A program made the position numbers and the translations under genes. The notes under the pieces were generated by a model that saw only the letters and a list, made by a program, of their open reading frames with translations, did no database searches and was not told the DNA's origin. Below are positions 1,654-29,468 of a stretch of 64,000 nt of DNA, in pieces; positions within the stretch are counted from its first letter, which is position 1, and every line of letters starts with the position of its first letter. Source of the stretch: Mytilus trossulus (Eukaryota); NCBI RefSeq assembly GCF_036588685.1, contig NC_086373.1, positions 68,386,001 to 68,450,000 on the forward strand, given 5' to 3'.

Positions 1654-1685
<32 letters not shown>

Positions 1686-3864: not shown

Positions 3865-6495
3865 AGATTACTTCTACCTAAATTTTGATCAAGTATACCA
3901 CTGAGATCAATAAATCAGACAAATAATTTCAAACAAGAAGTCTGTAACATAATATATTTTGAAAACTGAGCACATGCAAAAATTTATTAATTAATCATGA
4001 CACAGTATTTGTATCAGTATCTAATAACATAAAATATTAATATCAGAAAGTACATTTAAACAAAAGTTTATAGATGGTTGATCTCTTTAGTTGATGCAGA
4101 AATTTGCATGTTCGTGGTTTCAATTTTAAGTATCAACATGATAATATTGTATTTCATAATGATACTTTAAAATTATTACTTCTATAGTTCAAATTAGTTT
4201 TAGGTACACTGACTCAAAACTGAAAGTTAACCTGACAATTGGTGTAAACTGTGGCGTTAGGGTGGATCCAAATTTTTACACCACTGAGCAAAACATTAAT
4301 TATTTTCATCCTAACATCTGTGATACTTATTTGTAACTTGCTGCAATTAGTAGTTATTTACTAATCATACATACCTAACACATTAAACAATGTCTGATAG
4401 GATTTACCAAGCACATTCATTCATTTTCCTTGTGTCAATATGTATTTAGAGGAATGTAAGAGAAAATATTAACAACTGCTTAAGAAGGTTGATGTTTTAG
4501 TTCAATAGGATTTAGGTGGTAAAATATTAACCCTAGAAAAAGATTTGTGGAATGTTTGATCTAAAGCGAAAAAATCTAAACAAACAAGAAAATAAGTAAA
4601 AACTGAGTTGAAATCATAAAATTCAACATTGTTTATAAAGAAAAGATATTTAGGATGTAAGAACTGAAGAAAAATCTAAACAAACAAGAAAATAAATAAA
4701 TCAACCTTCAGTTGGAATTCATAAATACAATATGGTTTACACATCAACTTTCTTACAATAAGAAAAAAAAACATGTTACAGTAAATAAATTGTATTACGA
4801 GCAATAAAGAGAAAGGGCGTGGGGTAAATATTGAACTATAGTTTTATTTTGTGTTCCATAATTAAGACTCTTTGACCTGGACATTAATTTGATTGTCTGA
4901 ATTGAAAATCATTTAAAAAAAAATTATGGTTTATTTTGACATGTTCAATTCTAAAAGGAGAAACCGTTTAAACTGTTTGTAAGTTTGCTCTCGAGTTTAT
5001 CATCCAAGTGGTTTCATACCGGCTAACTTTTCAAAATCCAAACAGGAATTTTAATGCAAGAGGACCTCTTACATCATCATAATTGTTTTTTTTATTAAAT
5101 CTAATTATATACTATTTGGATGAAAATGTATGTGCTTAAATACCCTTTTAACCCATTTGAATGCCTATGTTGAGGTGTTTAGTTCATATAATAAGAATAT
5201 CAAAAGTCAAGGTCAACACCTCTCATGAGGAAAATCATCCATAAATCATTGGCAGGTCTGTGGTTTTTATATGGATCAGGATTACAACTAAATAAAATTG
5301 AGAAAGGAAATGGGGAATGTGTCAAAGGGACAACAACCCGATCATAGAGCAGACAACAGCTGAAGGCCACCAATGGGTCTTCAATGTAGCGAGAAACTCC
5401 CGCACTCGTAGGTGTCCTCAGGCTGGACCCTTAAAAAATATGTATACTAGTACAGTGATAATGGACGTCATACTAAACACAAGAAACTAAAATCAAAAAT
5501 CATACAAGACTAACAAAGTCAAAGAAGCTTTTACTTCCATATGGATTATGCTGGTGTTTTGGGATCAAATAAACATTTTAGAACTTTATGATAAGTGAAT
5601 AACAGCCAATTCCCTGGTGGTAACAACATAAGCCCACATAATGAAACCAGTATTTCATTCCATAAGGGTTATGCCATTCTATGTTTATGTACATAAACAA
5701 CAATCTATTCTTATTTTCTTATTACAAAAATTGAATCCAAGCTGACATTTTCTCTTAACTTTGTAATCCAACTGAACAGTAAATTGTATAATAAATTTTA
5801 TTATGTAATTTCAAAAAGCACCAAGACATGCACCAAAATAGTTTCCAGACATCTGAGAGTTATGTTTGCATTTGGTGATAGTTTTCTGATTAAATGGTTA
5901 TTTTGCCAAGCAATGGAAGAAGATGAATATTTCTCCTAAAGTGATATCCAAATAACAAAGCTTTGAAGAATTGGAATCAATAACATTATGACACAACAAG
6001 TATTACAAAACAGATGTTTGATGGACACAAATGTTAAGGGAAGCACTTAATTTGAATATCAATTAATTCAACTACAATTCAATTGTACAAAAATGTATCT
6101 ATTTACAATTCCTATGGCTATTCAAGCAATAACTATACTACAAATTCAAGTTTTGTTACAATATGACAATCAAAACATGAACATCTAATTTGTAAACATG
6201 TACATCTAAATTTCATAATTCTGAAAAGTTATGACAACTGTAAACAATTGAAGACAAAAGTGATTATCTTAATACATGTACAGGTTTTGCTCATTGCTGA
6301 AGTATGTTCAGTTACATATAGTTGTTTTAATCCACATCATTTCAACTCTAATGAATAGTTGTCTCATTGGCAATCATGCATACCACATCTCCTTATCTTG
6401 TCTTGATTTTCATATTTTTTGTCATAGTGAACACTAGCCCAACCTACAATGAAGTAGGGAGTCATTAAAATCGACAGAGAGGAGAGGGTACTTAC

Positions 6496-6639
6496 TTCAG
6501 CTTTAAGGGTCTTCTCCCTACTACTGGATACAGCATCTTTATCCTTTCTATCATAGTGAATACTTCCTTCTTCTTGTAGGGTCATTAATCTATCCTCTAA
6601 ACTCTGAACCTCTTTCTCTAATGCTGAGATTCTAGAATC
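6496..6639 (-). CDS. ERC1: ERC/ELKS/CAST coding exon 4 (DSRISALEKEVQSLEDRLMTLQEEG...KTLKAE)
   Basis: AG acceptor at 6640-41, GTAAGT donor at 6495, 144 nt phase 0. Resembles the human ERC1 segment DSKISSMERGLRDLEEEIQMLK. Confidence 0.85.
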
Positions 6640-7509: not shown

Positions 7510-8267
7510 GGCTCACACAATACAATTTATCACTGTCAAGCTGCTGCCAAATACGAAGTCGTGCTAAAAAAGAAGTTCTTGGGAAAAGAGTGGTCGAAAT
7601 GTTTGTTTGACAATCTGACAATTGGACAAACAAAGGTGAATGCCATATGGTTCTTGAGTTTACCTATAATTTTGATAATAATGGCGGCAGTTATTTTTTC
7701 ATTACACCTTTCAAGAGTTCTAGAGTGCAGTAAAATATTTTTTATGAGCTGAGCAATATAAAATATCTTTTAGTTCCAATTGGACTACAAAATCATATGA
7801 AAAGAAAATCAATTTTGTTTGGCCTACAAGATTTTCCTCAATTTACTCATTTCTTCAAATCAAAATGCTTTGAAATTTTTGACAATATTTCAAAACTGCT
7901 TCAATAGAAGATGTTTCATGCAATAATCAAAATTATGCATGGTATTCTTTCTGTAAATAAACAATATATAAAGTACATGTAACAACTGGCTAAATGCCCA
8001 ACTATATTTATTGAATCCATTATCATCTCATCTCTTTATCACAATAAACACTGCCAAGTTCAATACCAAACTGAAATGTGAGTCTCTGAAGATACAAAGA
8101 TCAATCCTACACTTTTAGAGAACATTTTACAATGTTTAATACTAGCAATGTTTCATGCCCCACTTAATTAGGTTATAAAAATGGACACCAGATATCACAG
8201 GGAAATGATTTATACAATTCCAGGTAATTTCCTCAATTATTTTCTCATTAACAGGTATATAGATTAC

Positions 8268-8366
8268 CTTGGCTTCTAAGATAGCCTGCATAGTATGGGT
8301 ACTGGAAGGTTGCTGTTTTAATTGAAGTTTACTGTGTTTCAATTCATCTGACAGTTTACTGTTTTC
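8268..8366 (-). CDS. ERC1: ERC/ELKS/CAST coding exon 3 (ENSKLSDELKHSKLQLKQQPSSTHTMQAILEAK)
   Basis: TTTTACAG acceptor, GTAATC donor, 99 nt phase 0. The end MQAILEAK matches ERC1 LQTVIEMK and joins exons 2 and 4 in frame. Confidence 0.85.
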
Positions 8367-11014
8367 CTGTAAAACAATTTATAGAAATAGTCATCATTTA
8401 TACTATACGTTACTGGTAAAAAAATGAATAAAAGATAAGACATTAAATTATTATCTTCTTTAATCTTGTTTATTAAAAAAGCATCATTTTTTTCTTGCAA
8501 TGTTGTCTCTTTTTTTTTAAAGGACAAGGTTTTGAAGTTTGTATTGTTTTTATCTTATAGAAGTTATGTTAGGTCTTCTTTTTTCTGGTTGAGAATTAAA
8601 TTGCAGGGAACATAGGGATGCTCAACATTTAATTTATATACTATGGCCTAAAGCTGCCAATAATCCTGTTAATAGCTCCTATGTTAGAACAACAACTACT
8701 CCATTCTCAAGTATGATTATCAAACACAACATACACAGATGCTTTACAACTTTTTTGTACTTTGGTACAACTCTCTCTTCCAGTCAGTGGCATCTTTGAA
8801 GAGAATGTTATTGAGAGAAGACTTTTTACTGTTTGCTATAATTATTTCATTTTCAGGTGTTTATTGATGTTTGTTCTCGTATTTGATGTGAATTTTTTCA
8901 ATGTACAATTCATCAACAATTTGAAGACAGTTCTGACTTTACATTACAATTGATATAAACATTTATAAAGGGGCGATGCTTTATTCAGTTATGCAATAGG
9001 ATATTACTTTTCACACTTAAGATTTTCGTTCCCTTTCAAGTAATATTCTACAAAGAAAAGTAGATGTGCTAAAAAGGTTGATCTGTCTAATTGATATCAC
9101 CAAACAAGAGGCTCCAAAGAGCATAAAATCATTCACATGAATTTGTTTGTTTGAAACAAATTATCATTAGAATCATGTGGTTTGAGTCTTCTATCATAAA
9201 TCCTTTAAGATTTCATAACATTGAGTCTTGTACAGTAGATTTACAAGAGGAAGTAAATGAAACCTGGAAAAGCAGAATCAATGTTTGTCTCTCTGGTCCT
9301 ATTTTGGAAGGACCAGTATTGATTGTTTATTTCAAACTAATTTAGTGATCTCCAAGAAGTTGATTTTTTTTCATAGGGATGTGCTAGCATTGTTGCTATG
9401 TCAACTTGGCTCATGCATAGCTTGGAGAAAATCATTAATCCTTGAACTTTTGAGTTGGCAATCTTTATTATAATCAGCCCACTGAACCAATAAGGTCTTG
9501 TTCTATCCAAGAGGTATTCTCATGCTTAATTTGGTGTTGATAGAGCAAATGTTTCAAGAGATTGCCAGATATCAAAACTTTTTTCTAATTTTAGTTTATC
9601 ATTTGCTGCTGTGACCTTGACTTTTTTACCTTGTGACAGGTTTTTAATATTGGGCCTATCAAAAGTGGCTTTTTGAAGATGATTGTTTATTTATGGCTTA
9701 AAAGATCTTGTTAATAATTGAAATGTTCACACTACATTCCAATTTATATAAAAATATGAATTCTCTGATTAAAAACGTTTCACAAGATTTATTACCACAA
9801 TTCCTAAGAAGTGTTTAAAAATTACTTAGTCTAATTTATCCATTCCTCAATGATCTATTAATCAATTGCAAGGAAATCATAAGTATAAAGTAAAGAGATT
9901 ATGATGTAACCATTATAGAAAAAAAAATATGCATATTGCATCTTGTTGGAATTATGTGGGATATTTGTGCAATATCATGGTAACTGAAATATCTTAGTAA
10001 CTCATTCAACAGATACAATAATGGGATCATTACTTTGAAAGCATATATACATGTACACCAACCCTATGTTTATTGCTAAACAAAATGCACATACAGAGTT
10101 CTTAAAATATCAAATTCTAGTACCATGGTACTTAAATTAAGACACAGAGAGGTGTGTAATGATAGATCTCTATTTAAGGAAACTTCAGATGCAATGGTAG
10201 CATGTCGCAGAGCATTATAATTTTTAAAGAAAAGCAACAAAAAGTGTGACATTGACTTTGTACTTCTGTAGTAGGTATAGAAATAAACAATACATTATAC
10301 TATATAGGTATAATGTGACATGATGACAGCAAGTGTCTGTTAATTAGGTCAACAAGAAAATATATTGTATCCTTCAGAATAGTGAAGGTGATGGCACTCA
10401 CAGTCATAAATTATGTCTTTCAGTTTAAGGATACAATTATAATAAATTTTGTCCTTCTGGAATATTTTCCAGAAATTTGAATTTTAGCCAACACCAAACC
10501 ATTGTCACCATTTTAAAGAGCAGTGTCAAGGGATAACAGCAATACCTTTTATAGCTCACCATACATTTTTCATGACAGTCAATAACATATTATGGATTTT
10601 GCTTAACTTTAGTTATTTTTGCTATTTTAGTATTTTAATGACATGACTGAAAATGAATAAAATAATATGATAGCTATGCATTATTCAAATATTGTTGCAT
10701 ATTATATATATATATATACAAGTCTGAGGGAAAGTATTACAAAACAGCATTTCAATCAGCCAGAAAGTTTAATTTGATTTTCGCTTACAGAATTCTAAGA
10801 TGCAAAATTTAATCAAGTAGAGAAATAATCAATAACATTCTTTCCTTAATAAATAAATTAAATTTCAAAGTAGTACTGGTAAATATAAGATCATAGCACT
10901 TTTATTTCAATATATATTAAACCAGTTTATTTTACAAATTGAATCAGCATAAAATTGAGAATTTCAATACTTGTTACATTGATAAGCCATCTCTTAACTT
11001 AAAAAAAAGCTAAG

Positions 11015-11473: not shown

Positions 11474-11807
11474 NNNNNNNNNNNNNNNNNNNNNNNNNNN
11501 NNNNNNNNNNNNNNNNNNNNNNNNNNNNNNNNNNNNNNNNNNNNNNNNNNNNNNNNNNNNNNNNNNNNNNNNNNNNNNNNNNNNNNNNNNNNNNNNNNNN
11601 NNNNNNNNNNNNNNNNNNNNNNNNNNNNNNNNNNNNNNNNNNNNNNNNNNNNNNNNNNNNNNNNNNNNNNNNNNNNNNNNNNNNNNNNNNNNNNNNNNNN
11701 NNNNNNNNNNNNNNNNNNNNNNNNNNNNNNNNNNNNNNNNNNNNNNNNNNNNNNNNNNNNNNNNNNNNNNNNNNNNNNNNNNNNNNNNNNNNNNNNNNNN
11801 NNNNNNN
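11474..11807. other. Assembly gap (334 N)
   Basis: Run of N characters. Confidence 1.
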
Positions 11808-12698
11808 CAATTTTTTTTTTAAAGCAGGGGTATAATTACACTGTAATATCAAATTTGTTCGACCTCAAATAATCATAATTCTGAATATTCCACTCAGATA
11901 GACAATACTCTATTGTGATAAATCAAATCACTACAAAATGTACCGATATGTGCTTTATACTTGCAGGATAAAAAGAGTGGACAATATCTGTGGTCAGAAC
12001 AATACAAAGGATGGAAGGATGGACATGTATACTACAGGCTGCAAAAAAAAATCTAATATTGTGACAGAGCTTATATCCAAGCAATGATGAATAGATCTTG
12101 TTAGAAGAAATAGATTGTTGTTAGCAGCTAAATTACATCAATGTCTGAGGACACCTCTTCTAATGCCAAATGAGATAGAGGACCTAATTAGCTTGTCTGC
12201 AGTCTGTCTGTAATGAAGTATAGGCTGATATTGTTTTAACAAGGTTTTAAAGGAAATAAAATACAATTGTGGTATCAAATGCATCCCAATTGGTCTACTG
12301 CTAGATAATTTGCTGACGCAATGGCATTTTAATTTTGCTAAATTATGTAGTAAACTGTGTGTAGCTTAATTAAATAAACTTGCAATGTTTAATAAAGAAT
12401 ATGGAGTAAAAAATATGATGCAATACATATGATTGGTAACATAAATGAACAACTATAATGTTTATTTTGTAACAGTGTCCTAACTAGAGTTACTGCACTC
12501 AATACCAACAACTAAAACATTGCCTTTCAAAAGAGAAAACATCTTTATGCTTTCCAACTGATATTGTTTTAATTCCATCTGAAGAAATGTATTTGGTGCC
12601 CTTCCAAAAAAAATTATTCTGGCTGAATTTTTTTTCTCAATACATGTTTCCCCCTATTCCTTATCATCATATTTATCTATGTCTAATTCTTCACTCAC

Positions 12699-13085
12699 CT
12701 CTTTTACTTTGGACATTTCTAATTCATTCTGACTGATAGTATTTTGTAACTGTTTAATTTTTCGATCGTCCTCTAACTGTCGTGTCTGTAAATGTTCTAC
12801 TTCCTGTTGGTTATCCTCTATTTTTTGTACCGACAATCCTTTACTTTGTAACATTTCTAACAGTTTTTTCATACTCTCATCTCTAGCACTTAACGTTTGT
12901 TTTTGAGTTTCTATTCTAAGTTCCATTTCGTCAACTGTCTTTTTAAGGATAAGTATCTCTTTGTTTTGTTTATCTTTCTCTCTCTGAAGAATTTCAATTT
13001 CCTGTTGCGAGATCTTAGAACTTGCCTGGACATCTTCGTAAGATTTGGTCTGGTTTTCTAATTCATGTAGATTATCACTTTGTTT
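12699..13085 (-). CDS. ERC1: ERC/ELKS/CAST coding exon 2
   Basis: Contains the conserved ERC motif LKKTVDEMELRIETQKQTLSARDESMKKLLEMLQSKGL. TTCCAG acceptor, GTGAGT donor, 387 nt phase 0. Confidence 0.93.
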
Positions 13086-13961
13086 CTGGAAATATAAGGT
13101 AGAGAAATTATAATTTATTGAAATATAATTTATTGCATGATACAATTTTTTACCTTCAAGCCTTTTTGCTTAATTATAAATGACAAACTTTCTAACTCCT
13201 GTCAGTATGGCAACAAATATTTAATTTATTTTGAAATCAAAAATACATGTCAATACCCCACTTGCACTATCACATTTTATGTTCACTGAACTGCAAAATC
13301 TAGGTCAAGTAATCTGCAAGACACACAAATGGATCCTTGTGGAATATTTACCTAAATTGTTTCCATAATAAAAATGGATTAGGTACATGTATAGGTAGGT
13401 ATACATATTTTACATGGTCCCTATAGGGAAGTAGTTTTGGATTTTTAAAGGAGCTTTTCCAAAAATGTCCACAATATATGTTAGGACACCTAGCTATAGG
13501 CCGTATAGGGAGACAGGAAACTTAATTATATGTTTTGTTGGCCTCACTTCAACTTGATCTTAAGCTAGAAATTTTCTTATTGCCTTGGGTTACTACTGAA
13601 AGTGAATTTAATAATATTTTAATATTTTAATACAGCAGCAATTTAGATATTTATAATATATATAAAAACATTTTATATAAACATAACACTACATAAGTAA
13701 AATAATAGTTCAAAGTTCCACATGCATGTACAAAACTTCAATTAATTCTTTTAAACAAAGTGTTTTGCATTGCCACCCAAGTTCAATAACAAACATTTTA
13801 AGATTGGCAACAATTTCTCAAACATCAATCTTCTGCAAGTCAGATAAAATAGCAAACATACTAGTTTATCAAATTATCAAATAATGCTGAAAGGAAGTGT
13901 TACATGTATATTCTGAGCAATTATGTCCAGTAATGATACAATATATATCTCAAACTATATT

Positions 13962-14104
13962 CAGAGGCAGATTTAGGGGGGGGGGCCTTTTTGGGAGAAA
14001 AAAATGGTTGCTTACATAGGAAATCACTGAAGCGTGACTGAAGTGGGCCCCCTCTTAGGCAGTCAGTGGGCCCCCACTTATGAAAATTTCTAGATCCGCC
14101 ACTG
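13962..14104. mobile_element. Short MITE with CAGTGGCGGATC-type TIRs
   Basis: CAGAGGCAGATTTAG...CTAGATCCGCCACTG with a poly-G tract. A related copy lies at ~34820-34974. Confidence 0.65.
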
Positions 14105-16580
14105 ATACTGCACAATAAATGTACTAAATTTAACTTTCAATACCATGAATACAATATCTATGTTTTTTTTAAATGGTTATAGGTACAATGTAGGCCCAGT
14201 ATAAAAGACCACTGTACCATATACATTTTTGTAACTGAATGTGATCTAATATTCAAGCCCAACATGTAGGACCCTCATGGGTAGTCAAGGTTTTTAAAAA
14301 CCCTATCATCATCATCTGGTATTGAAACAATTTTCAGACTGACTGAACGAGTTAGAGAACAAATAAACCAACAAATACAATATAGAATAGATGAATAGCT
14401 GTTAAAGAAGGCAATTTTTTGGGGAAGATTGAGGGACAAAAACAATACGTTCTTTTCATCAACTTTTTCAATGTGGTTGCCCTTACTATAAGAAATGAAT
14501 ATTTCCAACAAAGCATCAAACAGTAATACCAATGTCATGAATGTCATAAGTCTTTGGTTTGCTAAGGATTCAATTGCATCCTAGTTTAACAATCACACTA
14601 CCTTGGTAAGGTTGATGTGACATTTTTTAATCTAGACATTTCTATCTTTGGAAATATGCAACTATTCCAAAAATGGAGATTCACGCTTAATATTGTAAGA
14701 AACAGATTGTTGAAATTATTTCCACACTTCTCTCACTGTATGATGTATATTCAATTCTTTCTTAACACTGTGGATGATAGATTCTATCTCATAATTTCAG
14801 ATAAGTCAATTTAAATTTATGGGAAGCCCTTGACTGATAACTTTTAAACTTCCTATATCAAAAAGTCTGCATGTGGTGAAAGATAACTTGATTAGTAGTG
14901 ATATACCATCTAACAGACAGCTACTTTGTATATATGTGTTTTCATAACAGAAATACTTTAACTACACACATATAGCCATTGAAGTGGTCATTCTTGTAGA
15001 ACATTTATTTCATTGATTCTCTTTTCCCACTTACACTTACATTACCAAATTTTGAAGGGATGTGCACAAGCAACTGAACTTTAATTAACATATAATATTT
15101 ATAAAATATATGTGAAAGCAAATGTGACATATGGGCAGGGCCTAATAATTTTGCTTTCTCATTCCAAATCTAGATGCAATTGTATACACAAACTTCTCTA
15201 AAGTCAGGGTTTATATATGAACACCCTATCCTTCTTCTTTAATAATAACTTGCACTTGAAAATCAATAATTATTACATGGTGGCAGATTCTCCTCCCTTC
15301 TCTGTTGTGAATACTTTATTATCAATACAAATAATCAGAAAATAATAAACATAAAGCTTCAGTTCAATTCCTTATCATATTCAGCTGTCAATTATATTTC
15401 AGTAGCAGCATATACATGGTATATATTTTCTGATATGATTTCATCTATTATTAATTATATCTGTATTTATTATTACATGTCATGATGTCAAAGATATTAT
15501 CTGCATATCATAATTTAGATTGAAATTCATTAACCTAATTTTAGAAAGAGTTATTTTCCTTTTTCACCATTTCACCATATAACTTTCATGAGGTCACCTG
15601 GTCACCCTGCAAATTTTTTTTTTCAAAAATCAACCAAATTAAAATTGTTTAGATAGACTTTAATAATTAAATTGGTTGTCTAATAAGGTTAATGTAAAAA
15701 TATGAAGATCGGGAATTATTGCCAAATGGGTCAAATGACTCAGATGACTCTGTATGTGTTGGACAATAATAAAGACCTTCAACAGATTATTCAGATTAAC
15801 ATACAAATTTCAAGCCAGTCAAGTTCTGAGCAGTACAAAAAATGTAATTTTAAAAAATGTACAAGAACCAAATATCTATACTTATTGTTTTCAGTATTTT
15901 AATAACCAGCTTATTTCTGATAAAATGTATAATTGTTTGTTCTGAAATCTTGAATTCAAAAAGTTTTTATTACCAGATCACCAAATGCCAAACGAAAGAA
16001 ATAGAACAAGTCTGAAATTGGGACAGTATTGACAAAGCTGTGCGACTCATAAATGCCAAGGAAAAAGATAATTTTAGCTAAAATGCTATAAAATTAAATT
16101 ATGCAACTAAGTCAGCTGTTTCATGAGGAATTACATCTAAGATCATTGCATGCAGTGAATTGTCATATATGCATCATATTCATAAATTTTGCTGTTTATC
16201 ATGTTTATAGCACCAGTGAAGAGAAAACGGTTAACCATGGATATTAGGAACACAATTTTCATGTCTTTCAGTCCTTATAAGTGTAAAAAAAATGACAGTG
16301 AATCACTCAATAACAAGATAACTCATAAAAGCTATAATCCCTGTACTACATGTACAAGTACCGACTTTTTTTAATCTCATGCGACAGATATTTGTGTTTA
16401 TGACTTATGTTTTCTGTCTTCAGTAATGGCCAATAAGTCTCAAGGTCAAACATTTGTTTTTACAAAGCGGTTATTGACAATTTAGTTTTTATGCTTATAA
16501 TATCAAAATACAATATATGACTAAGGCTGGACTAGTTTACTGTGTTTTTTTGTGTATATTTGAAATGGGATGCATTTTCA

Positions 16581-16811
16581 AGGGCCCTCATGGGGTTTTT
16601 GATTATGTGATTACTTGGCCGTTTTTTTAATGATTATTTGATTATTAAGCTAAATATTTCATGATTATTTGATTACCTAGGACTGTATTTTTAGTTTATG
16701 ATTATTTGATTACTAAAGATAAGCAAATATTTAATGATTATGTGATTATATTGGCCAAAAAAAGGTGATTATGTGATTACTAGGACCCCCCCCCCCCCCC
16801 ATGAGGGGCCT
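16581..16811. mobile_element. MITE with 15-bp TIR, 8-bp TSD and internal GATTATNTGATTA repeats
   Basis: TIR AGGGCCCTCATGGGG / CCCCATGAGGGGCCT, flanked on both sides by CATTTTCA (16573-80 and 16812-19). Confidence 0.85.
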
Positions 16812-16872
16812 CATTTTCAAATATTTTAAATTTTCTACATTCATAAATGTTGCAGACTATATTATATCATTG

Positions 16873-19800
16873 TCAAAAGTTACAAACCTCTGGTACTTTT
16901 GGTAGTGTTACAACTTTGAACTGTGTAATTCCCACAGTGGTATTTTTGCATTCATTATTAACAATATGTAATTGTTTAACTATTTTAGGTGGTGGAGGAT
17001 CCAGTGTGCTACTGATGTCTGCCCTTACTGCTTCTGCATTACGAATTCCTTTATTATACTTTTTCACTGCAACTGTTGACGAGTGGCCTGTCCTTTCTTG
17101 TATAAATTCTTCTTGATAGCCTTGTTTAAACATTTTTGCTGCCATGGTTGCTTTGACTGAATGATTAGTGTAATATCCCTTGTAGCCAGCCTGTTTCATC
17201 ATTTTTGAGATCAAACTGTCCAACATGTTTTTCCCTAAAGGACATCTTGAAAATACTAATCTACTCTTATTTATCGGTAAGCCAACAAAATCTCGTGAAG
17301 GACGAAACCAGAAAATATCATTTACTTTAGGAATTATCAATATGTATGTTTCCAGCAAGTTATAATAAGTACGAGGATTGTCTTCACATTTATATTGTTT
17401 AACTGGTTTGTACTTCTTGGATGAGACAATTCTAGAGGTGAATTGGACATATTTCCCAGTTTCATCTTCGCCAAATGAAAACTGACTAACACGCAGCTTC
17501 CAGAGTTCATATGATGGTCCAACACAGAAAACTTTACAAGTGTAAAAATACACTGCATATAACAAACCCCATGACATATCAAGACTGAACACTCCTTTAT
17601 CCCACAAAACTTGCTCTTGTTGGTCCGTTATCATTTGTGCCTGCTTCTTTTTTACTCCAATACCCTGTTTTATCAATTCAATACATCGCTCATCTAATGC
17701 TTTATGAAATTTAGAAAACTCTTTCTTTGTGGAATCAAACAAGCTTAAATTAGTCCAACCTGAACGTCTGAAAATGCGCTGAAATCCAGCAATTAATGAC
17801 CTTATTGAATTAGGAGGATAGGGAGCACCAGCACTATTCCTTACTTCATGTATAAATTTAATCAGTAAATCATTCAATTCTTCCTCAGTCACATTTTTGT
17901 ACACACTGTGAAGTAAAGGTACAGGTTTGCAATCTGGATCTACATTAGCCTTGTTTCTAGCTTTTGCCCAATCATTCCAAGTGTTATTTGCCCAGTTATT
18001 ATTTTTCAAGGTGTTCCCTGGAACAGATGAGTTACTCGGCTCAATATCTGTGTTCACAGCGATGTTCTTTGATGTTGAGGTATCATCTACATTGTCAGCT
18101 GCAGAAGATTTATTTATGTCAGGATCTCTGCCTCCTAAAAAATGATATCTATCAACAGGAACATTATCAGATGGTTCATTTGCTAGAGAAGTCACGCTTT
18201 CAATACAGAATGGTCCTTGGCTTATGATTTCAGAAGGTATAACGCCCTGCATATTACATGTATTTACTCTGGTATATAACAAGTTTTCAGGAGCCCCAGT
18301 AGAAGTAATAGTTTCATTAGGATTAGCATGAATTACAGTGGAAGTCTCATCACTTGTGATTTCAACTGGTTTTTCTTTTGAATAGATTTCAATGTCAGTA
18401 TTTTCTATTGGCTCTTTTTTAATTTTCTTAACCAAAGCTTCTAAGCTAGTTTCTGCATCTCTTTCTCTCTTCTTTCTATCATGTCTATTACATTTTTCGA
18501 ATAAGGATGGCCAATTTGAACTGCTTGTAACATTACAATTTAATACATTGTTACTGGTGTTTTTTGTCACATTTGTACTGGCCATAGCTGTTTCATCATT
18601 CTCATAATTTGCCTGAAAATCATGTCTTTCTGAATCTTTTTCCATTAAATCAGTTTTCAAATATGTAGAACTTTCTTCATTTGAACTGCATGAATTTTGA
18701 GAAGAATTTGGTTTTGGTAAAATTGGTTTAAGCTGCTGCAAAACAGGTTTCTGTTGTGGTTTCATTTCTGATACTTTTTTAATCATAATTTCATCAGCTA
18801 TATCCTTTTTACGGGCTGTATAAGCTGTTTTAGCTACATAAAGCATTTTTACATCAATCCATCGTAACGCTTCTTTACTTCCCTCTTCAAGCATTGATAT
18901 TATTTTTGACATATAATCCCATGAATAGGTTTTTCCATTTTCATCGACCAAATCAAAGGCAAATTCAAACACTAGTTCAAGCAACTGTTTTTTACCCCTA
19001 ACGCATTTAATCAGTTCTGTAAAACCTGTGCAGGTTAAACCTTTACTCGCCAGATTTTTTTGTTTACTTATTGCCCATTTTTTCCAATGAGTTAAAGCCT
19101 TATCCATCCAGTTTTCCTTGGAGTTTAGGTCAATATGAGTTTGTTCCTTATCTAAAAGGTGTGTTTGAGTGTCTGTATTGTCATATGATTCTTTACCGCT
19201 TTGATCATTCAACATACAAGCATTTGTCACTAAACCCGTAGGATACACTTGTCCTGAATTTAGGTTTGTATTTGCAATAGCTTCAGTTGAATTAGCACTA
19301 CCCTGCTTTTCATATTCTGGGTCTAATACTTCAGTTTTAATATTTACAGTATTTTCAATTTCCAATAATGAGGGAATATTTGTATGCTGTTTGCTAACTG
19401 GTTCAGACTTGATATGAGTAATAATTTGTCTCTGAGATGGATAATTAGATGAATTAATATTTAGAACTGGTGAAATCTGACCAATATTAACAGAAAGATT
19501 TGCATTGTTTACATCTGTTGAAAGTGGGTGTCCTAGATTTTGACCTGTAACCATTGGCTGCACCTGAAACAGCTGCTGTCCCACTTGGACATATGTACCT
19601 TGAACTGCTTGTTGTCCTTGAATCACATGTTGCATTTGACCTTGAGATGGAAAACTCTGAATAAATGGCTGACTTTGTAGAAAGGGTTGTATTTGACTTG
19701 AACTTGATAATCCACTAGGCAGCTGAGTCTGAAGAATTGTTTGTGATCTAATGTCTAGTGGCTGATTATATGGTCTTAAGTCTAACTGTATCCCTGAAGT

Positions 19801-19878
19801 TGAAGGCTGGACCTGTTCAGTCTGTTTGTGTACCTCACTTTCTCCTTGTTGAACCATTGGTTTGTATAGCACATACAT
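16873..19878 (-). CDS. Crypton-derived DUF3504/tyrosine-recombinase-fold protein (QRICH1/ZMYM/KIAA1958-like), nested in ERC intron 1
   Basis: Uninterrupted ORF with first ATG at 19878; the frame is open from 19971. The C-terminal third has CryptonA motifs: LNDLLIKFIHEVRNSAGAPYPPNS, KQAQMITDQQEQVLWDKG, GYYTNHSVKATMAAKMFKQG, IQERTGHSSTVAVKKY. The N-terminus is Q-rich. Confidence 0.85.
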   Translation of the reverse strand: MYVLYKPMVQQGESEVHKQTEQVQPSTSGIQLDLRPYNQPLDIRSQTILQTQLPSGLSSSSQIQPFLQSQPFIQSFPSQGQMQHVIQGQQAVQGTYVQVGQQLFQVQPMVTGQNLGHPLSTDVNNANLSVNIGQISPVLNINSSNYPSQRQIITHIKSEPVSKQHTNIPSLLEIENTVNIKTEVLDPEYEKQGSANSTEAIANTNLNSGQVYPTGLVTNACMLNDQSGKESYDNTDTQTHLLDKEQTHIDLNSKENWMDKALTHWKKWAISKQKNLASKGLTCTGFTELIKCVRGKKQLLELVFEFAFDLVDENGKTYSWDYMSKIISMLEEGSKEALRWIDVKMLYVAKTAYTARKKDIADEIMIKKVSEMKPQQKPVLQQLKPILPKPNSSQNSCSSNEESSTYLKTDLMEKDSERHDFQANYENDETAMASTNVTKNTSNNVLNCNVTSSSNWPSLFEKCNRHDRKKRERDAETSLEALVKKIKKEPIENTDIEIYSKEKPVEITSDETSTVIHANPNETITSTGAPENLLYTRVNTCNMQGVIPSEIISQGPFCIESVTSLANEPSDNVPVDRYHFLGGRDPDINKSSAADNVDDTSTSKNIAVNTDIEPSNSSVPGNTLKNNNWANNTWNDWAKARNKANVDPDCKPVPLLHSVYKNVTEEELNDLLIKFIHEVRNSAGAPYPPNSIRSLIAGFQRIFRRSGWTNLSLFDSTKKEFSKFHKALDERCIELIKQGIGVKKKQAQMITDQQEQVLWDKGVFSLDMSWGLLYAVYFYTCKVFCVGPSYELWKLRVSQFSFGEDETGKYVQFTSRIVSSKKYKPVKQYKCEDNPRTYYNLLETYILIIPKVNDIFWFRPSRDFVGLPINKSRLVFSRCPLGKNMLDSLISKMMKQAGYKGYYTNHSVKATMAAKMFKQGYQEEFIQERTGHSSTVAVKKYNKGIRNAEAVRADISSTLDPPPPKIVKQLHIVNNECKNTTVGITQFKVVTLPKVPEVCNF

Positions 19879-22391
19879 TGTGTGATGATTCTTAAGTTTC
19901 AGTTCAGATAAGTCAATATCAATTAGCACTTTACAATACACATAAATTGAAAGCCTTCTGTTAACAGTGCACTAAATAATCCCAAAAAGAAAGAATGTTT
20001 TCAATTTCCACTGTGGTTAGCCCATTTATTGATTTTTGTGTCCTATGATTAGTAGTGTGTAATTTTACTTGTATCATGAATAGTGATGGCATGGTGTAAA
20101 GTGTTAACATGGTTTATTTTCCTTACCTGTGTCAGTTATCAGTGTACAATTTAGATGTGAATATTTGAAGAGAGTTTGTAGGTTTTATTGTAAAAGTTTC
20201 TTTTTCTACTTAGATAACAATACAAAAAATAAAAGTCTGATTAATAAATTCCATAGAATAAAAAAAAAAAAAAAATACTTTCAAAAGCTCACTTATGGTT
20301 TAACCATTTTAAGAAATGATACCCAATTATTACAATATACCTTTGTCCTAATAATTTTTCAGAATATCTAACTAGATCACCATTAGTTAAATAGTAAACT
20401 TATTATCTATATACATTTTTAATGCTCAGGGGTTCCTAAATCACAAAAGTTGCCATTATTTACAGTATGCCATAAAACTGTCATAAATCTTCTCAAGGTA
20501 TTTAAATATGTGGGGCATCATTTGGGTTAAAAAAAATATAGTTATCATGTTTATTCAATTTCAATCATTTATTTAAGTATTTTTAGTGCATATTAAAAAG
20601 ACATTAGTATGAAATCAAAACAATAGAATTAAATGTGTTAACAGAAACAAACAATAAACAAAACAAACTTTGACAAGCAATATGTTAATATAGAAATTTG
20701 TTTTCATAAGATTTTTAATAGCTACTTCTGCATAGAGGAAATTCGTTCATGGAATTTTTATACACAATACACAATGAAGCATCTACATAAACCAAACCTG
20801 GCAGAATTTATTTTGATACATTTTGGACAATTATACTTAATAGTTCCAGGATACATGTACAAAATGCAATTTTTAAAAGAATACATGTACATGTACAAAA
20901 AAATGTAGCATCTGACAGGATAAGGTATAAAAAGTCGGAAGGTTATAGTAACACTCTATAAATTCAATTACATGCAGTTGATTATGTAACAAACTGAAAT
21001 GTTAGTAACTGTGTAAGCCTTGGGGTCAGGGTTTTATTTGATATTCAATAAGTAAACACTTACTGGGTAGAAATTGGATTCATGGGTGAGTAAAAAACTT
21101 TCCCCTCTTTATCAAAATCCTGGATCTACATTTACACCTGTACACTTCCAGCGGATGGTAACTATTACAAAATTTAATGTTTTTACTTGCAAAACATGGT
21201 ATTGATGCTGCGTTTAAAATATGATGCAGTTACAAGAGGAACATTAAACAATCGAAGTGAATGGACACATTACCCTTATTTTGAACTTTTAAAAAATATG
21301 CTTTATATAAAGCAGACATGTACTTGACAGTGTTTATTCAATGCAGAACTTTGTCTCCATTTTGTCTTTAATTGTAGCACAGATACATTTCAACATTTGC
21401 ATTACAGTCTACAACTCATTTAGATATTTAAAATATTAATATGACAAATATGATTATTAACATGACTAATAAAACATATTTTTTTATTGAATATCTGAGT
21501 GAGTACATATCTGATTACAGCTGTTGTCCATTTGTTTGATGTATTTGAGCTTTTGATTTTGCCATTTGATTAGGGACTTTCTGTTTTGATTTTGCCATTT
21601 GATTAGGGACTTTCTGTTTTGATTTTTTTATATGCCCATCTGTACTTTTTTGTCTATTGGTTGGTGTTATATGAAAAAAGTGTCCAATTCTTGTAATTAT
21701 AATGTTATGGAAATGCATGTATATCATCAGATTAGTGATGATCTAAACCAACTCCTGGTCTGTACAAGTTTTTTTTACATTAATAACAAAATCATCAAGT
21801 ATTATCTAGAGAAAAACATTTCATTGAGTGATTGTTCAAAAGTTTGGCTGTGTTGGGAAATTAGAGTATGGGAATATAATTCATTATCGGTAACTTTCAA
21901 ATATGTTCTAAAGATTTTAATAAAATATAAGGTGTGTTTTTTAAACGGAAGCCTATGCTTACATGTACATGTCTTACAAATGTCTTATAGTAAAACTAGG
22001 TACATGTATATAAAGCAACCTACAAAATGTATATTACATTTTTGTATTTCATGATGGAGGATTAAGAGGAACGCAGATTACCAGGGGTTGAAGTCATTAA
22101 ACTTTGCTCAGTGCTTGGAGTTGGAGCACAAAAATCATGCTTGAAACATGAAATCCAACATTTTGATTGGTTGATTTTGGAGTATGAGTACAAAAAAACT
22201 GACTCAAAAGTTTGGAGATTGCTCACCAACCTTTGAAAGGACTTTTTTACACTGACAAATCTATATATAGCTCAACACAGAGTTATACTTAGTATATATA
22301 TACATTCATATAATATGCTACATGAATTTTTAGGTGTATTATTAACATTTATAAGTATGTGCCAAAAATCAGTAACACTAACATTCAGCAA

Positions 22392-23330
22392 TGAATCCGG
22401 TTCCTTACCTGGAAGAAGAAGAAGACCTATTGTATTTGTTCTGATTATTATTATTTTTTTATTTTTATTTTTTCTTCCGCCTAATTTTTTTTCTTGCGTA
22501 GTATTGATGTTTCAAAAGAAGTCGCTAAGATATTTGGAATATGATATCCTATAGTTTATACGCTTTAAAAATTTACAACGACGTAACAAAATACTTTACG
22601 TTGTAAGGGTTATCTCCCCAAACACTGTTTTTCTTGTGGCCACTACTCCTTCGCAACCGTAATAGATTACGACAAATTTATTTTACCAAATTGCTTGTTA
22701 CATCTTACAGATTAGGATATTCATTGGACCGAAGCTTTACGGAGACTCCATATGACAGTTATTCCCCCTTTTTCATTTGATTCAAGTGATATGCATTTCT
22801 AACTAGTAAACCATAAGTGATAGAGACCTAGGGTCTTCAGATTTGAGATCCTTGGTCCAAGAAAATGAGGTGAAGGTCAAAGGTCAAGGTCATATTCTAA
22901 ATTTTGATTTTGGCTTATTTTCACTTATTTTCAAATACTTTAAGACACATCGACAAATATTTTTTCATAAATTGTTAGTTGCGACATGTCCTTACTTGTA
23001 TATTTTGGTTGAAAGGGTGCGGAGACAATAAATGGGAGTTTTTGCCCATCTTACTTTTAGAATAATGCGTAAAGTGATATACCTCATTAACCAAACATAT
23101 TAAAGACCTAGGGTCTTTTGATTTAAGGTCCTTGGTTTGTGACCTTGAAATTGAGGTCAAGGTCATAAGTTTATGGGACATTCTAGATTTTGACCTTTGC
23201 TTTAAATTCATATTAATACATCATAAAGCCATAGGAATTAACATTTTAAACTGATTTTTCATATTTCAATATCAAAATAGATCTTTACTAGTGGAAAGAC
23301 TTTCAATTGTTTTCTAAACAATTGGTTTTT
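22392..23330 (+). mobile_element. Helentron/HINE-like element (third family), degenerate
   Basis: Starts near GAAGACCTATTG...(ATT)n, has internal GACCTTG/CAAGGTCA repeats and ends GGAAAGACTTTCAATTG...CAATTGGTT with a terminal palindrome. Confidence 0.5.
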
Positions 23331-25725
23331 AATTGATTTATATTTTCTTTGAATAATTCAGCAGTTTTTTACTAAAAGGTATCAGAGTTTTGGAAACAGA
23401 CTGACATATGATTACTAGTAGTAGTGTAAATTAATTCATATACATGTACATACAAAATTTATTTCTCCCTAAACAGTGAATAATATAACATTAAAAGATC
23501 TGCATTGGAGATGCATTTACATTATTAGACAATTATCAGTAATTTAGCATTTACGGATATACACGTACATGTCTCCAGCTGATAGAAAACAGTGGATCTC
23601 TTAACAAAATTGCAGAGTACCAAGAACATTATGACAGAGCAATTGCCAATTCTGTATACATTTAATTTTTGTACATGCATATATATCAGTCCATAAAATA
23701 CTAGCACAATTTACAGGAACCTTGAGAAAGGTAATCAGGAAATAATTTATTATGGAAAACAATTAACAATTATATATACACGTACATTTGTACAAATGTA
23801 TCTCATTAATATTCCATGGAAGTCCCCAACTTCATAATATTACATGAAATTAGTGTTGTATGCATGCATGCGTCTTTCACATTTTTTACGTTTTTTGTGT
23901 CAATTGCAGTTAATTGCTTTTCCTTTCATTTTGTAACTGATTTAATTACAATATAATGAAAGTTTAATAGTACATTTAAATTTATGAACATTTGTATTTA
24001 CATTGATTTATATATACAAGCACTTTTTTCTTTTCTCTTCTTGTGTCTTGTCGAACAACCTTTTAACAACCTACACAATACAACTCAAAGCATGGATATG
24101 CAGTACATGTATTATTTTTCATTCACATGCACATGTACAATGAACCCATTAACCCTGTACTACTACATCTTAAAATGTTCATTTGTAACCCCTGGTTGTT
24201 CAAGATTATTTCTCATTACAAATAATATATTCCTGTGCCGTTATAAGGGGATAACAATACCAAAATCTGTTCTATCAACTGTATCAATAATAACATTATT
24301 ATTGCCCTATGTGGGCTGAATCTATCAACATCATCAATAACATGTGACAATATCACATTATTATCAAATAGAAGTTTATAATTTGAATCCAATTCAGTTA
24401 TGTTTGACAAGTACTTGAGAAATAACTTCAAATAAGTACATACATGACATATGTACATATGGTTGATTACAGCGCCTGCATGGCACCAAAGTTCATTGAT
24501 CCTACATGTATTTTTTCTTGATATATTCATGTAGATATGGATTCTACCACTGCATCGAGTGGGATACAATATTTATCCATTCGAGACAGATAAATTTTCA
24601 AATTTAAAGTTAAATATTTGAAATTTAACTGTTGAGAGTGGATAAATATCATATTGCACAAAATTTGGTGGTGGAATCTGTTTCTCTTAATGGTTTAAGA
24701 CAATATGCAGGAAATCTTAATCCTACTTTTCGAAATGACCTAAGAATTAGATAAATAATTGTACTCTTTTTTTCAGTTATTTGCATACCCTATTTTTAAG
24801 ACAAAATTATGCAATTAACTAAATTAAGGGAGACTAACTGGGAGTGTTTCTTTAAAAATATGAGTTACAATTACATTTAGTTTTATATATAGCATTCTAC
24901 AACAAATGTATACATGTAAATTTACATGTCAAATATCACAATTAACTACATTTTGTACATGTGTATTAGCAGCCATTTGTACCCTTGGCAAGAGGATTAG
25001 ATAATAGATGGTGATAGATAGCTGTTTAATGACAAGTTACAAAAATGAAAATACAATGGATTAGGGAAACTCCAGTTACCCTGAAGGAAGCTATGTATAG
25101 CTAGCTATTGTAGCGAAGTTTTTATTATTAAATTACTATACTTATGTATACACAATGGGGATGGCCAGTATGCATTCACAATATCTATTGGTCAGACTGT
25201 CTATAATGATATTTTCCCAGGTTGCAGTTTAAATTCATCATTTCAAACTGATTTAATGGAGAGAGAAAATTGCCAAAAGTAAAATGTTATTATTATCAAG
25301 CCTGCACAATATAATAAAAAAAAATATGTGTTAGCACATGTAGTTAAAATCAGTGTTTAATTAATACATGCATGAAGATATAGTAAAACATGGCTAACAC
25401 CAGATTTTTCTTAACTTTTTTCACTTCAGGGTACACAGATAAATTCTTTTCATTTCTAGTCATGCGTAAAATAACAGGGTTAAACAGTATCATTTATTAT
25501 CACCTTTCTAACAACCAAATCTTTACTAAATCTATCATGGCCCACTGATCTAAATGATCTAAACACGCAATTTTGAAAATTGATATAACAGAAGTCAGAA
25601 ATGTGGTTATGGACTTTGTATCAAAAGGAAATGATGCACAATAAGTCAAAGGCATTTCAATCATATGAAAAGGAGATTTATATTAATAGCCCACATTATA
25701 GTGACATAACATGTACAGCAATGAC

Positions 25726-27443
25726 AACCAGATGCTCCGCAGGGCGTAGCTTTATACGACCGCAGAGGTTGAACCCTGAACAGTTGGGGCAAGTATGGAC
25801 ACAACATTCAAGCTGGATTCAGCTCTAAATTTGGATTGTGATTAAATAGTTGACACAGCATAGGTTTCTGACACAGAATGAATGTGTTCTAATGAAATTA
25901 AAATTTTTGTTTTCTCTTAGAGCAATTCACTATGCTGTTGAATATTATTCCTCTCAAAAAAATGTTTGAAGAAATTTTCTTTTTATTTATGAAATTTCAA
26001 ATGAGAAAATTGAACCCAATTTTTTTAATCACATCCCCCTTTCCCTTATTCCAAAACTAATCTCAATTAAAATTTCTAATGGAGTTTGCAACAATTACTA
26101 CTCATTTAAATACATCATAAAATATTAAGATGTAAAAAAATTGCTTGTTATCACTGAATGGTAAAGATTATTTTAATTTATCAGTTGGTAGTAAAAAGTG
26201 AATATACATTGTATATTGTATATATAACAAAGATTTAAGTTGATTATGGACAAAGAAAGATAACTCCAAATAAAAAAAAATCTTACAATTAGATATTTCT
26301 TGCTTACTATTCTGGACAAAGAAAGATAACTCTAATTAAAAACAAAATTGCTATTTCACAATATTTTGCAATAAGATATTTCTTGCCATTGCGCAATACT
26401 GCGCAATTGAAAAGACTTGCTATTGCACAAAACTTAATATAATAATTTTAGATCCTGATTTGGACCAACTTGAAAACTGGGCCCATAATCAAAAATCTAA
26501 GTACATGTTTGGATTCAGCATATCAAAGAACCCCAAGATTTCAATTTTTGTTAAAATCAAACTAAGTTTAATTTTGGACCCTTTGGACTTAAATGTAGAC
26601 CAATTTGAAAACAAGACCAAAAATGAGGAATCTACATACACAGTTAGATTTGGCATATCAAAGAACCCCATTTATTCAATTTTTGATGAAATCAAACAAA
26701 GTTTAATTTTGGACCCCCATTTGGACCGACTTGAAAACTGGGCCGATAATCAAGAATCTAAGTACATTTTTAGATTCAGCATATCAAAGAACCCAACCGA
26801 TTAATTTTTTGTCAAAATTAAACGAAGTTTAATTTTGGACCCTTTGGACCTTAATGTAGACCAATTTGAAAACGGGACCAAAAGTTAAAAATCTACATAC
26901 ACAGTTAGATTCGGCATATCAAAGAACCCCAATTATTCAATTTTGATGAAATCAAACAAAGTTTAATTTTGGACCCTTTGGGCCCCTTATTCCTAAACTG
27001 TTGGGACCAAAACTCCCAAAATCATTACCAACCTTCCTTTTATGATCATAAACCTTGTGTTTAAATTTCATAGATTTCTATTTACTTATACTAAAGTTAT
27101 GGTGCGAAAACCAAGAAAAATGCTTATTTGGGCCCTTTTTTGGCCCCTAATTCCTACACTGTTGAAACCAAAACTCCCAAAATCAATCCCAACCTTTCTT
27201 TTGTGGTCATAAACCTTGTGTCAAAATTTCATAGATTTCTATTAACTTAAACTAAAGTTATAGTGCGAAAACCAAGAAAATGCTTATTTGGGCCCTTTTT
27301 GGCCCCTAATTCCTACAATGTTGGGACCAAAACTCCCAAAATCAATACCAACCTTCCTTTTGTGGTCATAAACCTTGTGATAAAATTTCATAGATTTATA
27401 TTCACTTTTACTAAAGTTAGAGTGCGAAAACTAAAAGTATTCG

Positions 27444-27496
<53 letters not shown>

Positions 27497-27551
27497 CAAC
27501 GTGATAGCAATATACGACGAAATTTTTTCAAAATTTGCGGTCGTATAAAAA
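25726..27551 (-). mobile_element. Full-length Helentron/HINE-like element
   Basis: SubTIR TTATACGACCGCA (25752) pairs with TGCGGTCGTATAA (~27536). Terminal hairpin GCTCCGCAGGGCGTAGC next to AACCAG, tandem core repeats and (GAC)n; no TSD seen. Confidence 0.82.
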
Positions 27552-27969
27552 TTGATAGAAAATAAAATCATTAGGATCAAATATACATTCATATAATACA
27601 GGTTGACTTCTCATAAAATGTTTGAAAGCAACAAAGTACAAATATTGACATGATAAATGAGTGAATGAGCATCATGCATGTCATACATGAATGTAAATGT
27701 ACAATGTACATGCACATTTTTGTTCATGTACAATGTCCATCGATGTGCATTTTGTATTATACAGTTGTGCTTAAACTGACTTGGATGAACACAGACACTG
27801 ACTATATAATTCATGTAATTGTGGCGCTGATGTACATGTGTACATTTGGATTTTTAGTTCCACTCATGATTTTTTGCACAAATCAAAGTTTTTAGATTAC
27901 ATGTAAATGAGAGTAGTTTGACAAATAATTCAGTATCATTTAATTACTACATTGTAATCTACAAGTGAA

Positions 27970-28198
27970 TGTACATTTCTACATGTACATGCATGATTAT
28001 AATTATTTATTTTAATATATATACAAATAATTACAAATGTAATTAATTTTATAAACGTTACCTACATTGTACATGTATACTGTACATTTCTACATGTACA
28101 TGCATGATTATAATTATTTATTTTAATATATATACAAATAATTACAAATGTAATTAATTTTATAAACGTTACCTACATTGTACATGTATACTGTACAT
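27970..28198. repeat. Exact tandem duplication, 111-bp period
   Basis: TGTACATTTCTACATGTACATGCATGATTAT...GTACATGTATAC occurs twice (27970 and 28081). Confidence 0.9.
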
Positions 28199-28580
28199 TG
28201 TCACAGGCACATGCAACCTCCTTTTTTTCTTTTCAATTTTGTTATTTTGTTATTGTTTATATTAAGTTCTTTATCATTTTAATTATATAACTTATAACCA
28301 TCAATGTAATTCAATTCCAAACAAATTTTCAACCACAAATGATTAAAGCAACTGCTTTTTTTCACTTACATGTAACAACCACCATACTGGACAAAGAAGG
28401 AAAACACTAAATGCTCTGACATGAGGAAAACACCAAATGCTCATGAGGAAAACACTGAATGTCCATGTAACAATAGGATGGGTACCAATCAATTTATATA
28501 TATCAAGCATCAAAGCCTACAATGTACATGTACCTAGGGTTATAATACATTATAAAATTAAACTAATAAGGTTAACTTAC

Positions 28581-29468
28581 TTTTAATTCTGCTTGTGCCA
28601 CTTTTAACTGTTCATTCATTAAGCAATACTTTGCATTTTCTTCCTTCCGAAGTGCTCTTTCTTTCTTTAATTCAGGACTCCAAAATGTTTTAATGCTATT
28701 CATACTTGAACTTAATTTATCTTTGTAGGAGTCAACCTCTTGCTGCATTTTTGCACAATCCTTATTTAAATCTGCTATTTGTGACTGTAACTCTAGAATT
28801 AATCCATCTCTAAACGTTCTAATTTCTTGTGAATTATACACCTGGTTTGAATTTGTGTACTCAGGTCTTTCTGAAGATCGAGACCTTCCAATGTGATTGT
28901 TATGATCACGTTCTAAAGATCTAGCTCCCATATGTGGATATTCCTTGTCTATAGATTTATCACGATTAAAAGAGGATGACAGAGTATGCCAATCTCTACC
29001 CATCAACTGTTTTGATGGATCATTATGAACTGGCATTGTCAGTCTTGCAAACTGTCTATCTAACGACTGGTCTCCAATTGACATAGGACTTTGCTCGAAC
29101 TCATATCTATCACTTAAATTTCCAATGTTCCCATGACTTCCAGGTGGACTATCAAAATGGTATTTACCACCACTTGTTGGCATGCGTGGTTGTGTGCTGT
29201 AGCCATCATGCATTATGTACCTGTATGGTGAGTAATCTGGTGGTTGAGCATCAGAAATATGTGTATGACTAGGCGAGGTATTGGCATTGTGAGTAGGGGA
29301 CATTGAATTGTCTTTTGAACTGCTAGAACTTTTTCTGTTTTTTCTACCTGAAAATATGTTTTTGGGCAGAGAGGAGCTCAAGAAACCCCCTTTTTCATTG
29401 TTCGGCTTTTCCTTTGAAGGACTGGATTGCAAGGACTTAGGTCCCTTACTGCTCTTTCTTTTAAACAT
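28581..29468 (-). CDS. ERC1: ERC/ELKS/CAST family protein, first coding exon (296 codons)
   Basis: Contains the ERC/Cast signature KLSSSMNSIKTFWSPELKKERALRKEE. ATG at 29468, donor AAA|GTAAGT at 28580, phase 0. Confidence 0.95.

Follow-up and report, generated by a model that had tools for sequence, protein, structure and literature searches.

CSB-PGBD3 is a host-transposase fusion of the acceptor type, with the transposon part at its C-terminus. Crypton-derived sequences have also been described in host genes: in KCTD1 isoform b of jawed vertebrates, a Crypton insertion has placed one DUF3504 exon N-terminal to the host domain, KIAA1958 isoforms a and b carry alternative DUF3504 exons, a tyrosine recombinase (YR) is located in an intron of ATF7IP, and all vertebrate DUF3504 genes have lost the catalytic Tyr, according to one survey (Kojima & Jurka 2011, PMC3212892). 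Here we analyzed a window of 64,000 nucleotides (nt) of the mussel Mytilus trossulus (NCBI RefSeq assembly GCF_036588685.1, contig NC_086373.1, positions 68,386,001 to 68,450,000), in which the ERC/ELKS/CAST gene lies on the minus strand. We are fairly confident that intron 1 of this gene contains a single-copy, conserved CryptonA-derived exon whose 3' end is spliced to ERC exon 2 and which probably serves as an alternative first coding exon. The predicted product of 1,759 amino acids (aa; 997 + 762) likely replaces the first 296 residues of ERC with a recombinase-fold head that is predicted to be catalytically dead.

ERC/ELKS proteins are cytoplasmic scaffolds of synapses and the cell cortex (PMC12254231; PMC6753080). 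The N-terminal region of about 150 residues of human ERC1 is predicted to be disordered and the remainder forms a parallel coiled-coil dimer (PMC6753080), and residues 1-244 suffice for condensates, their removal altering condensate properties with partner binding kept (PMC12254231). The searched literature, which did not cover subscription journals, Repbase reports, and supplements, yielded no description of an ERC-Crypton isoform; in PMC13465315, from the Crypton literature, Mytilus is named once, as a structure source.

Evidence for splicing of the Crypton-derived exon to ERC exon 2

RNA evidence was taken from the low-depth contigs of five runs (X1, X2, X3, X4, and X6, of 20 listed) that were guessed to be RNA, and contig depth was not taken as a ranking of isoforms. 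A single long contig spanned the canonical ERC join from 28581 to 13085 in X2 (record 9, reaching up to 29646), and another did so in X3 (record 16, up to 29804); these canonically spliced contigs indicate that the runs contain RNA. The Crypton open reading frame (ORF) has a phase-0 donor at 16888/16887, four codons short of its stop and matching 6 of the 9 consensus letters, which a preliminary description of the stretch had overlooked. One X1 contig (443 nt, depth 3.2) aligned to 16888-17300, and its 30 loose letters corresponded exactly to window positions 13056-13085, the start of exon 2. Four of the five runs had a listed contig near this donor, all ending within 4 nt of 16888 (X1 and X2 at 16888, X4 at 16890, and X3 at 16892; X6 had no contig there), and the donor-ending contigs wholly accounted for the bin depth near the donor in X1, X2, and X4. 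The host isoform is kept beside the Crypton-exon isoform, the join from 16888 to 13085 being observed directly in one contig and the canonical join in two.

Database gene models have the same arrangement. Models in which the Crypton part precedes ERC, with lengths of 1741-1762 aa, were present in five Mytilus species (M. trossulus, M. edulis, M. galloprovincialis, and M. californianus in RefSeq; M. coruscus and M. edulis in GenBank), and the 997 codons in the window are identical to residues 1-997 of M. trossulus XP_063398361.1. In the listed chimeras, the first residue is the Met of the ORF itself and the protein then continues into ERC; the same Crypton/exon-2 junction, through the donor, is used in 6 of the 7 models whose junction was inspected. 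Among the database matches to the ORF was an M. galloprovincialis protein of 1741 aa that combines QRICH1 and Cast domains; in that species, isoforms X1-X3 are Crypton first, and X4-X5 have the canonical ERC form, 1058 aa long. RefSeq lists LOC134683169 X1 (M. trossulus), LOC143082852 X1-X3, LOC127700667 X1, and M. edulis XP_071128969.1 as "uncharacterized protein," names that leave out the transposon origin. Close to the end of the Crypton exon, the M. galloprovincialis models P0007 and P0011 are distinguished from P0001 by a tandem duplication of 15 residues.

The reverse order, ERC N-terminus to Crypton, was found in none of the 4 listed matches of the ORF search and in none of the 5 of a further search (957-3047 aa), all of which have the Crypton exon first. 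Neither PF25561 nor PF12012 occurred in the best 120 of 5112 matches to the ERC N-terminus (519-2000 aa), and the ERC-to-Crypton form was absent among the listed cluster members (15/17, 11/11, 1/1, and 2/2). An exact look-up of a stand-alone 1,001-aa protein gave no match.

Domain structure and loss of a catalytic residue

The Crypton origin of the ORF, claimed in the preliminary description, was borne out by Pfam matches above the cut-off to PF12012 (DUF3504; 39.9 bits, cut-off 29.7) and PF25561 (QRICH1; 41.4 bits, cut-off 30.8), and Phage_integrase fell just under its cut-off. No MYM fingers and no CARD were found in a Pfam scan of the exon. A single-sequence fold gave a mean predicted local distance difference test score (pLDDT) of 33, and an AlphaFold2 model based on an 88-row alignment (pLDDT 91.7) was used in its place. 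This model matched Cre/Tre with an expectation (E) value of 7e-10 and a template modeling (TM) score of about 0.62, and the closest solved relative by profile was QRICH1 in Zincore, the SEPHS1:QRICH1 complex (PDB 9hjt; E 7e-36), which is cited in PMC13538652.

The R-H-R-Y catalytic set of the exon is incomplete. In the column of the first catalytic Arg, which is R in 78 of 87 relatives, the window has G787; in the Lys column, K in 82 of 87 relatives, it has S819, a less certain assignment adjoining a gapped loop. The recombinase-fold domain is thus predicted from its residues to be unable to cut DNA. In addition to a complete DUF3504 module, the new head carries a degenerate copy of the N-terminal domain at residues ~224-349 (independent E value 5.5e-4 in the window and 6.8e-16 in orthologue P0002), a Q-rich stretch, three IKxE motifs, and a pair of basic patches. 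The basic patches are candidate nuclear-import signals and the IKxE motifs candidate SUMO signals; enrichment of IKxE in P0002-P0004 had a P value of about 0.02.

Copy number, conservation, and selection

The Crypton exon is single copy in the 1.3-Gb genome searched, where the next match was 33% identical (best of 114 scored). Its domain is 92-99% identical across Mytilus (329-331 of 335 residues in M. edulis and M. galloprovincialis and 309-311 of 335 in M. californianus and M. coruscus). In P0002 and P0003, 222 of 335 domain residues are identical (66%), and the flanks of P0002 match at 80 of 250 and 54 of 255 positions (21-32%). Among the 40 of 59 differences that were listed, 22 of 24 were silent in the domain and 6 of 16 outside it, a tally that mixes polymorphism and divergence and is not a codon-model estimate of the nonsynonymous-to-synonymous rate ratio (dN/dS).

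P0002 and P0003 have a start Met motif nearly identical to that of the window exon, and the three residues with which they end after the donor position resemble the read-through tail in the window. The longest contigs had equal sizes (408,499 and 100,874) for the P0002/P0003 cluster members and for ERC exon peptides, which suggests that P0002 and P0003 lie in the same ERC neighborhood. The window sequence, its Mytilus orthologues, and P0002-P0004 formed one clade (support 100) in a quickly built 57-row tree, which was used for this clade statement alone. P0194 adjoins the clade and keeps the first Arg. Elsewhere in the genome, the CryptonA elements L002 and L004-L010 (G000 C1, C4, C5, C8, C10, and C11) have intact catalytic motifs, and the multi-copy Crypton families retain the Arg motif. 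The ERC exon has neither the intact catalytic set nor the multiple near-identical copies expected of an active CryptonA. No direct repeats flanking the ORF were present among the 20 of 34 repeat families listed (minimum 20 nt; shorter repeats fell below this limit).

Several related sequences came to light in these searches. Two multi-copy, intron-split CryptonA families were likely active recently, as their copies are near-identical; on C8, three such copies lie no more than 8 kb apart. L003 (G000:C4:64500846-64501730, plus strand), a frame of 603 aa, is nearly identical to P0229, and its DUF3504 domain is strongly degenerate; a starred clade of 10 rows unites it with the ERC-Crypton exon, and it is a candidate second domesticated Crypton gene. 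P0188, P0189, P0190, P0199, and P0307 contain two or three tandem QRICH1/DUF3504 modules, so that module duplication seems recurrent, and P0250 (1015 aa) has an N-terminal QRICH1+DUF3504 module with a weak Ski/Sno/DAC match below the cut-off and is possibly a Crypton-first fusion.

The proposed acceptor and the region upstream of the start codon

The preliminary description had proposed that ERC exon 1 is spliced to an acceptor at the opening of the Crypton frame, fusing 296 aa of ERC to about 1030 aa of Crypton sequence. Its sequence elements are all present: the 24-nt pyrimidine tract ending at 19972, the minus-strand frame opening at 19971, the 31 open codons ahead of the first ATG (19878), the stop-to-stop frame 19971..16873 of 1032 aa, and an ERC exon 1 of 296 codons ending in phase 0. 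A chimera of ERC and the Crypton ORF likewise stands, with the parts in reversed order: the observed join runs from 16888 to 13085, and the listed database chimeras are Crypton-to-ERC. The splice from exon 1 to 19971 itself was not borne out, as no such join was listed among the low-depth contigs, an X1 contig was unspliced across the acceptor, and no listed protein had that order. The direction of the fusion is corrected accordingly, from ERC-to-Crypton to Crypton-to-ERC.

The features of the proposed acceptor carry little weight. Its AG is part of the TAG stop (19974-19972) that bounds the ORF, and phase 0 at 19971 is automatic because the bounding stop is a TAG. In three nearby intron stretches, TAG made up 13-17% of stop triplets, and an open run of 31 codons started at 345 of 3308, 128 of 1436, and 623 of 5308 positions (8.9-11.7%), so the chance probability of such a run is about 10%. 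The tract has 15 pyrimidines in 20 letters, a level reached by 9 of the 381 YAG sites of intron 1, including the true exon-2 acceptor. The 31 codons are most likely untranslated, because the protein starts at the corresponding Met in every listed orthologue.

In the contigs, the join from 28581 to 19971, whose detection had been suggested as a check, was absent among the 15 of 171 joints listed, and a further listing contained no joints and one loose end, at 16888; low-depth contigs cannot prove absence. The unspliced X1 contig spanned 19692-20085 and included 114 nt upstream of the acceptor, and X2 contigs covered 20060-20246 and 20287-20461. Another X2 contig, deduced from bin depths, ended at about 19975, 4 letters past the acceptor, and is too short to decide. 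Contig cover was absent at 20570-21480 and in several intron bins, gaps from which no start site was deduced. A strong donor at 20127/20126 (8 of 9 consensus letters, within the top 4 of the 877 intron-1 GT sites) would pair with the proposed acceptor. From the sequence, the acceptor may thus be either unused or the 3' end of a 155-nt intron, 20126-19972, in the 5' untranslated region (UTR), whose two ends were both traversed unspliced by contigs of X1 and X2. The interval 19880-20480 had a single match in the genome, and two metagenome scans for orthologous DNA gave 37 and 150 pattern matches, none of them confirmed.

Features of the locus

The coordinates are collected in Table 1. ERC exon 1 encodes the long N-terminal region and the beginning of the Cast coiled coil (Pfam PF10174) and is followed by a phase-0 donor at 28580 with the letters GTAAGT; two further coding pieces downstream were identified by tblastn.

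Table 1. Positions of ERC and Crypton-derived features in the window
Feature	Position	Strand	Description
ERC exon 1 coding sequence	28581..29468	minus	888 nt = 296 aa, phase-0 end
Candidate 5' UTR intron, 155 nt	19972..20126	minus	Strong donor 20127/20126 and the acceptor of the preliminary description
Pyrimidine tract + TAG	19972..19995	minus	Proposed acceptor = stop bounding the ORF; from sequence
Contig-covered region 5' of the ATG, in pieces	19879..20461	minus	Probably the 5' UTR of the Crypton-first transcript; alternatively, precursor RNA before splicing
31 open pre-ATG codons	19879..19971	minus	Most likely untranslated
Crypton-derived coding exon	16888..19878	minus	997 codons, ATG to phase-0 donor, 2991 nt
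Degenerate second Crypton N-terminal (core-binding/QRICH1-type) domain copy	18832..19209	minus	About residues 224-349
QRICH1 + DUF3504 tyrosine-recombinase-fold domain	16972..18039	minus	About residues 614-969
Donor GT + read-through tail	16873..16887	minus	4 codons, then stop, if the intron stays unspliced; from sequence
ERC exon 2, 388 nt	12698..13085	minus	Common to canonical and Crypton-first isoforms
ERC downstream exon	8226..8375	minus	Approximate tblastn bounds
ERC downstream exon	6493..6639	minus	Approximate tblastn bounds

Interspersed repeats occupy 25470-27840, 21530-23300, about 14060-14105, and 16560-16800 of ERC intron 1 and are matched by very many contigs. The intron-1 element at 26.4-27.5 kb, which contains units of about 160 and 260 nt arrayed in tandem, occurs again at 1-1900 of the window. 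A Ser-rich open frame of 213 aa at 51531-52172 (plus strand), with no Pfam match, is probably an exon of a neighboring gene.

Weighing the evidence

Several points weigh against a Crypton-first ERC isoform as described above. The direct junction from 16888 to 13085 is one contig from one run at a depth of about 3, its overhang of 30 letters is one under the 31-letter bar for a bridge, and the evidence consists of contigs rather than raw reads, from runs guessed to be RNA. The gene models are automatic and their read support is not visible; GenBank CAG2216491.1 has its junction elsewhere, and exon 1 is a separate gene in two GenBank annotations, from which it follows that predictors can build the fusion unaided. 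The 10 upstream ATGs in 20461-19879, 4 of which fall inside the candidate intron, are awkward for an unspliced 5' UTR. H906, H932, and the catalytic Y941 are retained, and K909 at the second Arg position is a natural variant (R in 49 and K in 33 of 87 relatives), which tempers the prediction of a dead enzyme. For the window protein, the enrichment of IKxE motifs is weak (3 observed versus 1.1 expected, P 0.10), and both nuclear localization and the fusion protein are predictions. Finally, P0002-P0004 are known as unspliced single-ORF calls, so that the Crypton-ERC fusion has been seen within Mytilus only.

Splicing of exon 1 to 19971 would yield either an ERC(1-296)-Crypton protein of 1,328 aa with an alternative last exon or, with the Crypton as a cassette between exons 1 and 2, a protein of 2,086 aa. 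The acceptor is good, the frame is open to the ATG, and the phases are compatible; the arrangement also follows the template of vertebrate acceptor-type fusions on which the preliminary description drew, an acceptor just upstream of the ORF being used in 8 of 9 vertebrate transposase fusions examined in 10.1101/2020.05.07.082677, and an ATF7IP-Crypton fusion of this order (P0202) was among our matches. Given the automatic phase, the frequency of comparable open runs, the unspliced X1 contig, the uniformly Crypton-first order of the listed database chimeras, and a start Met motif kept in the distant orthologue, we consider even a minor isoform of this kind improbable. A similarly low probability attaches to a nested, mainly stand-alone single-exon gene of 1,001 aa, in which the join to exon 2 would be leaky splicing of a same-strand transcript and the selected product would be the DUF3504 protein alone. 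The stop four codons past the donor, found likewise in P0002, the modest consensus match of the donor, the different end of P0004, and the fact that selection on the domain does not of itself require a fusion all fit such a gene. Against it, contigs of four runs stop at 16888-16892, where X1 has the letters of exon 2, RefSeq models use the donor in four species, and the donor position is apparently conserved in P0002 and P0003. A recent or still active Crypton insertion without a host role can draw on the intact multi-copy CryptonA families in the genome (L004-L010), but the single copy, the lost first Arg, the silent-biased variation, and the orthologues in five species and beyond have already largely refuted it, and we regard it as very improbable.

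A model of the Crypton-first ERC isoform is proposed on this basis. An old CryptonA insertion in ERC intron 1 may have kept or gained a promoter, and the donor four codons ahead of the Crypton stop would have permitted an in-frame splice to ERC exon 2. An intron-1 promoter located at about 20461 or above it would drive transcription, and translation would begin at the ATG at 19878. The head may direct the protein to the nucleus and bind DNA or chromatin factors without cutting, and the 762-aa ERC coiled coil may dimerize the Crypton-first protein. Our best guess from these features is thus a nuclear role in DNA or cofactor binding that does not involve cutting, with the ERC rod as dimerizer. 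A more speculative and rather unlikely extension is a two-purpose locus, in which a DNA- or chromatin-gripping head on a 762-aa parallel rod would pair with canonical ERC, carrying partners to the nucleus or ERC out of condensates, and would date from before the divergence of the P0002 lineage, whose domain is 66% identical, and have persisted since.

Comparison with known systems

This locus would represent an independent mollusc repeat of the event behind KCTD1 isoform b, on the unexpected host ERC/ELKS. A natural isoform whose N-terminus is swapped for DUF3504 offers a clean test of the function of a domesticated Crypton domain, and the same isoform tests whether the coiled coil of a scaffold can be reused in the nucleus. 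As in KCTD1 isoform b (PMC3212892), DUF3504 lies in one exon and is placed N-terminal to the host through a new transcript variant, a DUF3504-free host isoform persists, and the catalytic site is incomplete. In contrast, the mussel host is ERC/ELKS, a cytoplasmic coiled-coil scaffold with the Cast domain (PF10174), rather than a BTB repressor, and is not a KCTD1 family member; moreover, the Crypton exon is located in intron 1, and 296 host residues give way to it, so that the protein is not just extended. The mussel exon keeps the catalytic Tyr and His, whereas according to that survey all vertebrate DUF3504 genes have lost the Tyr, and it has an extra degenerate copy of the N-terminal domain.

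The exon shares the PF25561 and PF12012 pair and a Q-rich N-terminal part with the QRICH1, ZMYM2-4, WOC, and KIAA1958 genes but differs from them in its intronless domain and in belonging to its own clade with P0002-P0004. Like the intronic Crypton YR of ATF7IP (PMC3212892) and KRABINER (10.1101/2020.05.07.082677), it is an intronic transposon ORF joined to its host by alternative splicing. In ATF7IP and KRABINER, however, the transposon part is C-terminal and joined through an acceptor, whereas in the mussel it is N-terminal and joined through a donor at the end of the ORF. What is distinctive here is the N-terminal Crypton swap on a cytoplasmic scaffold.

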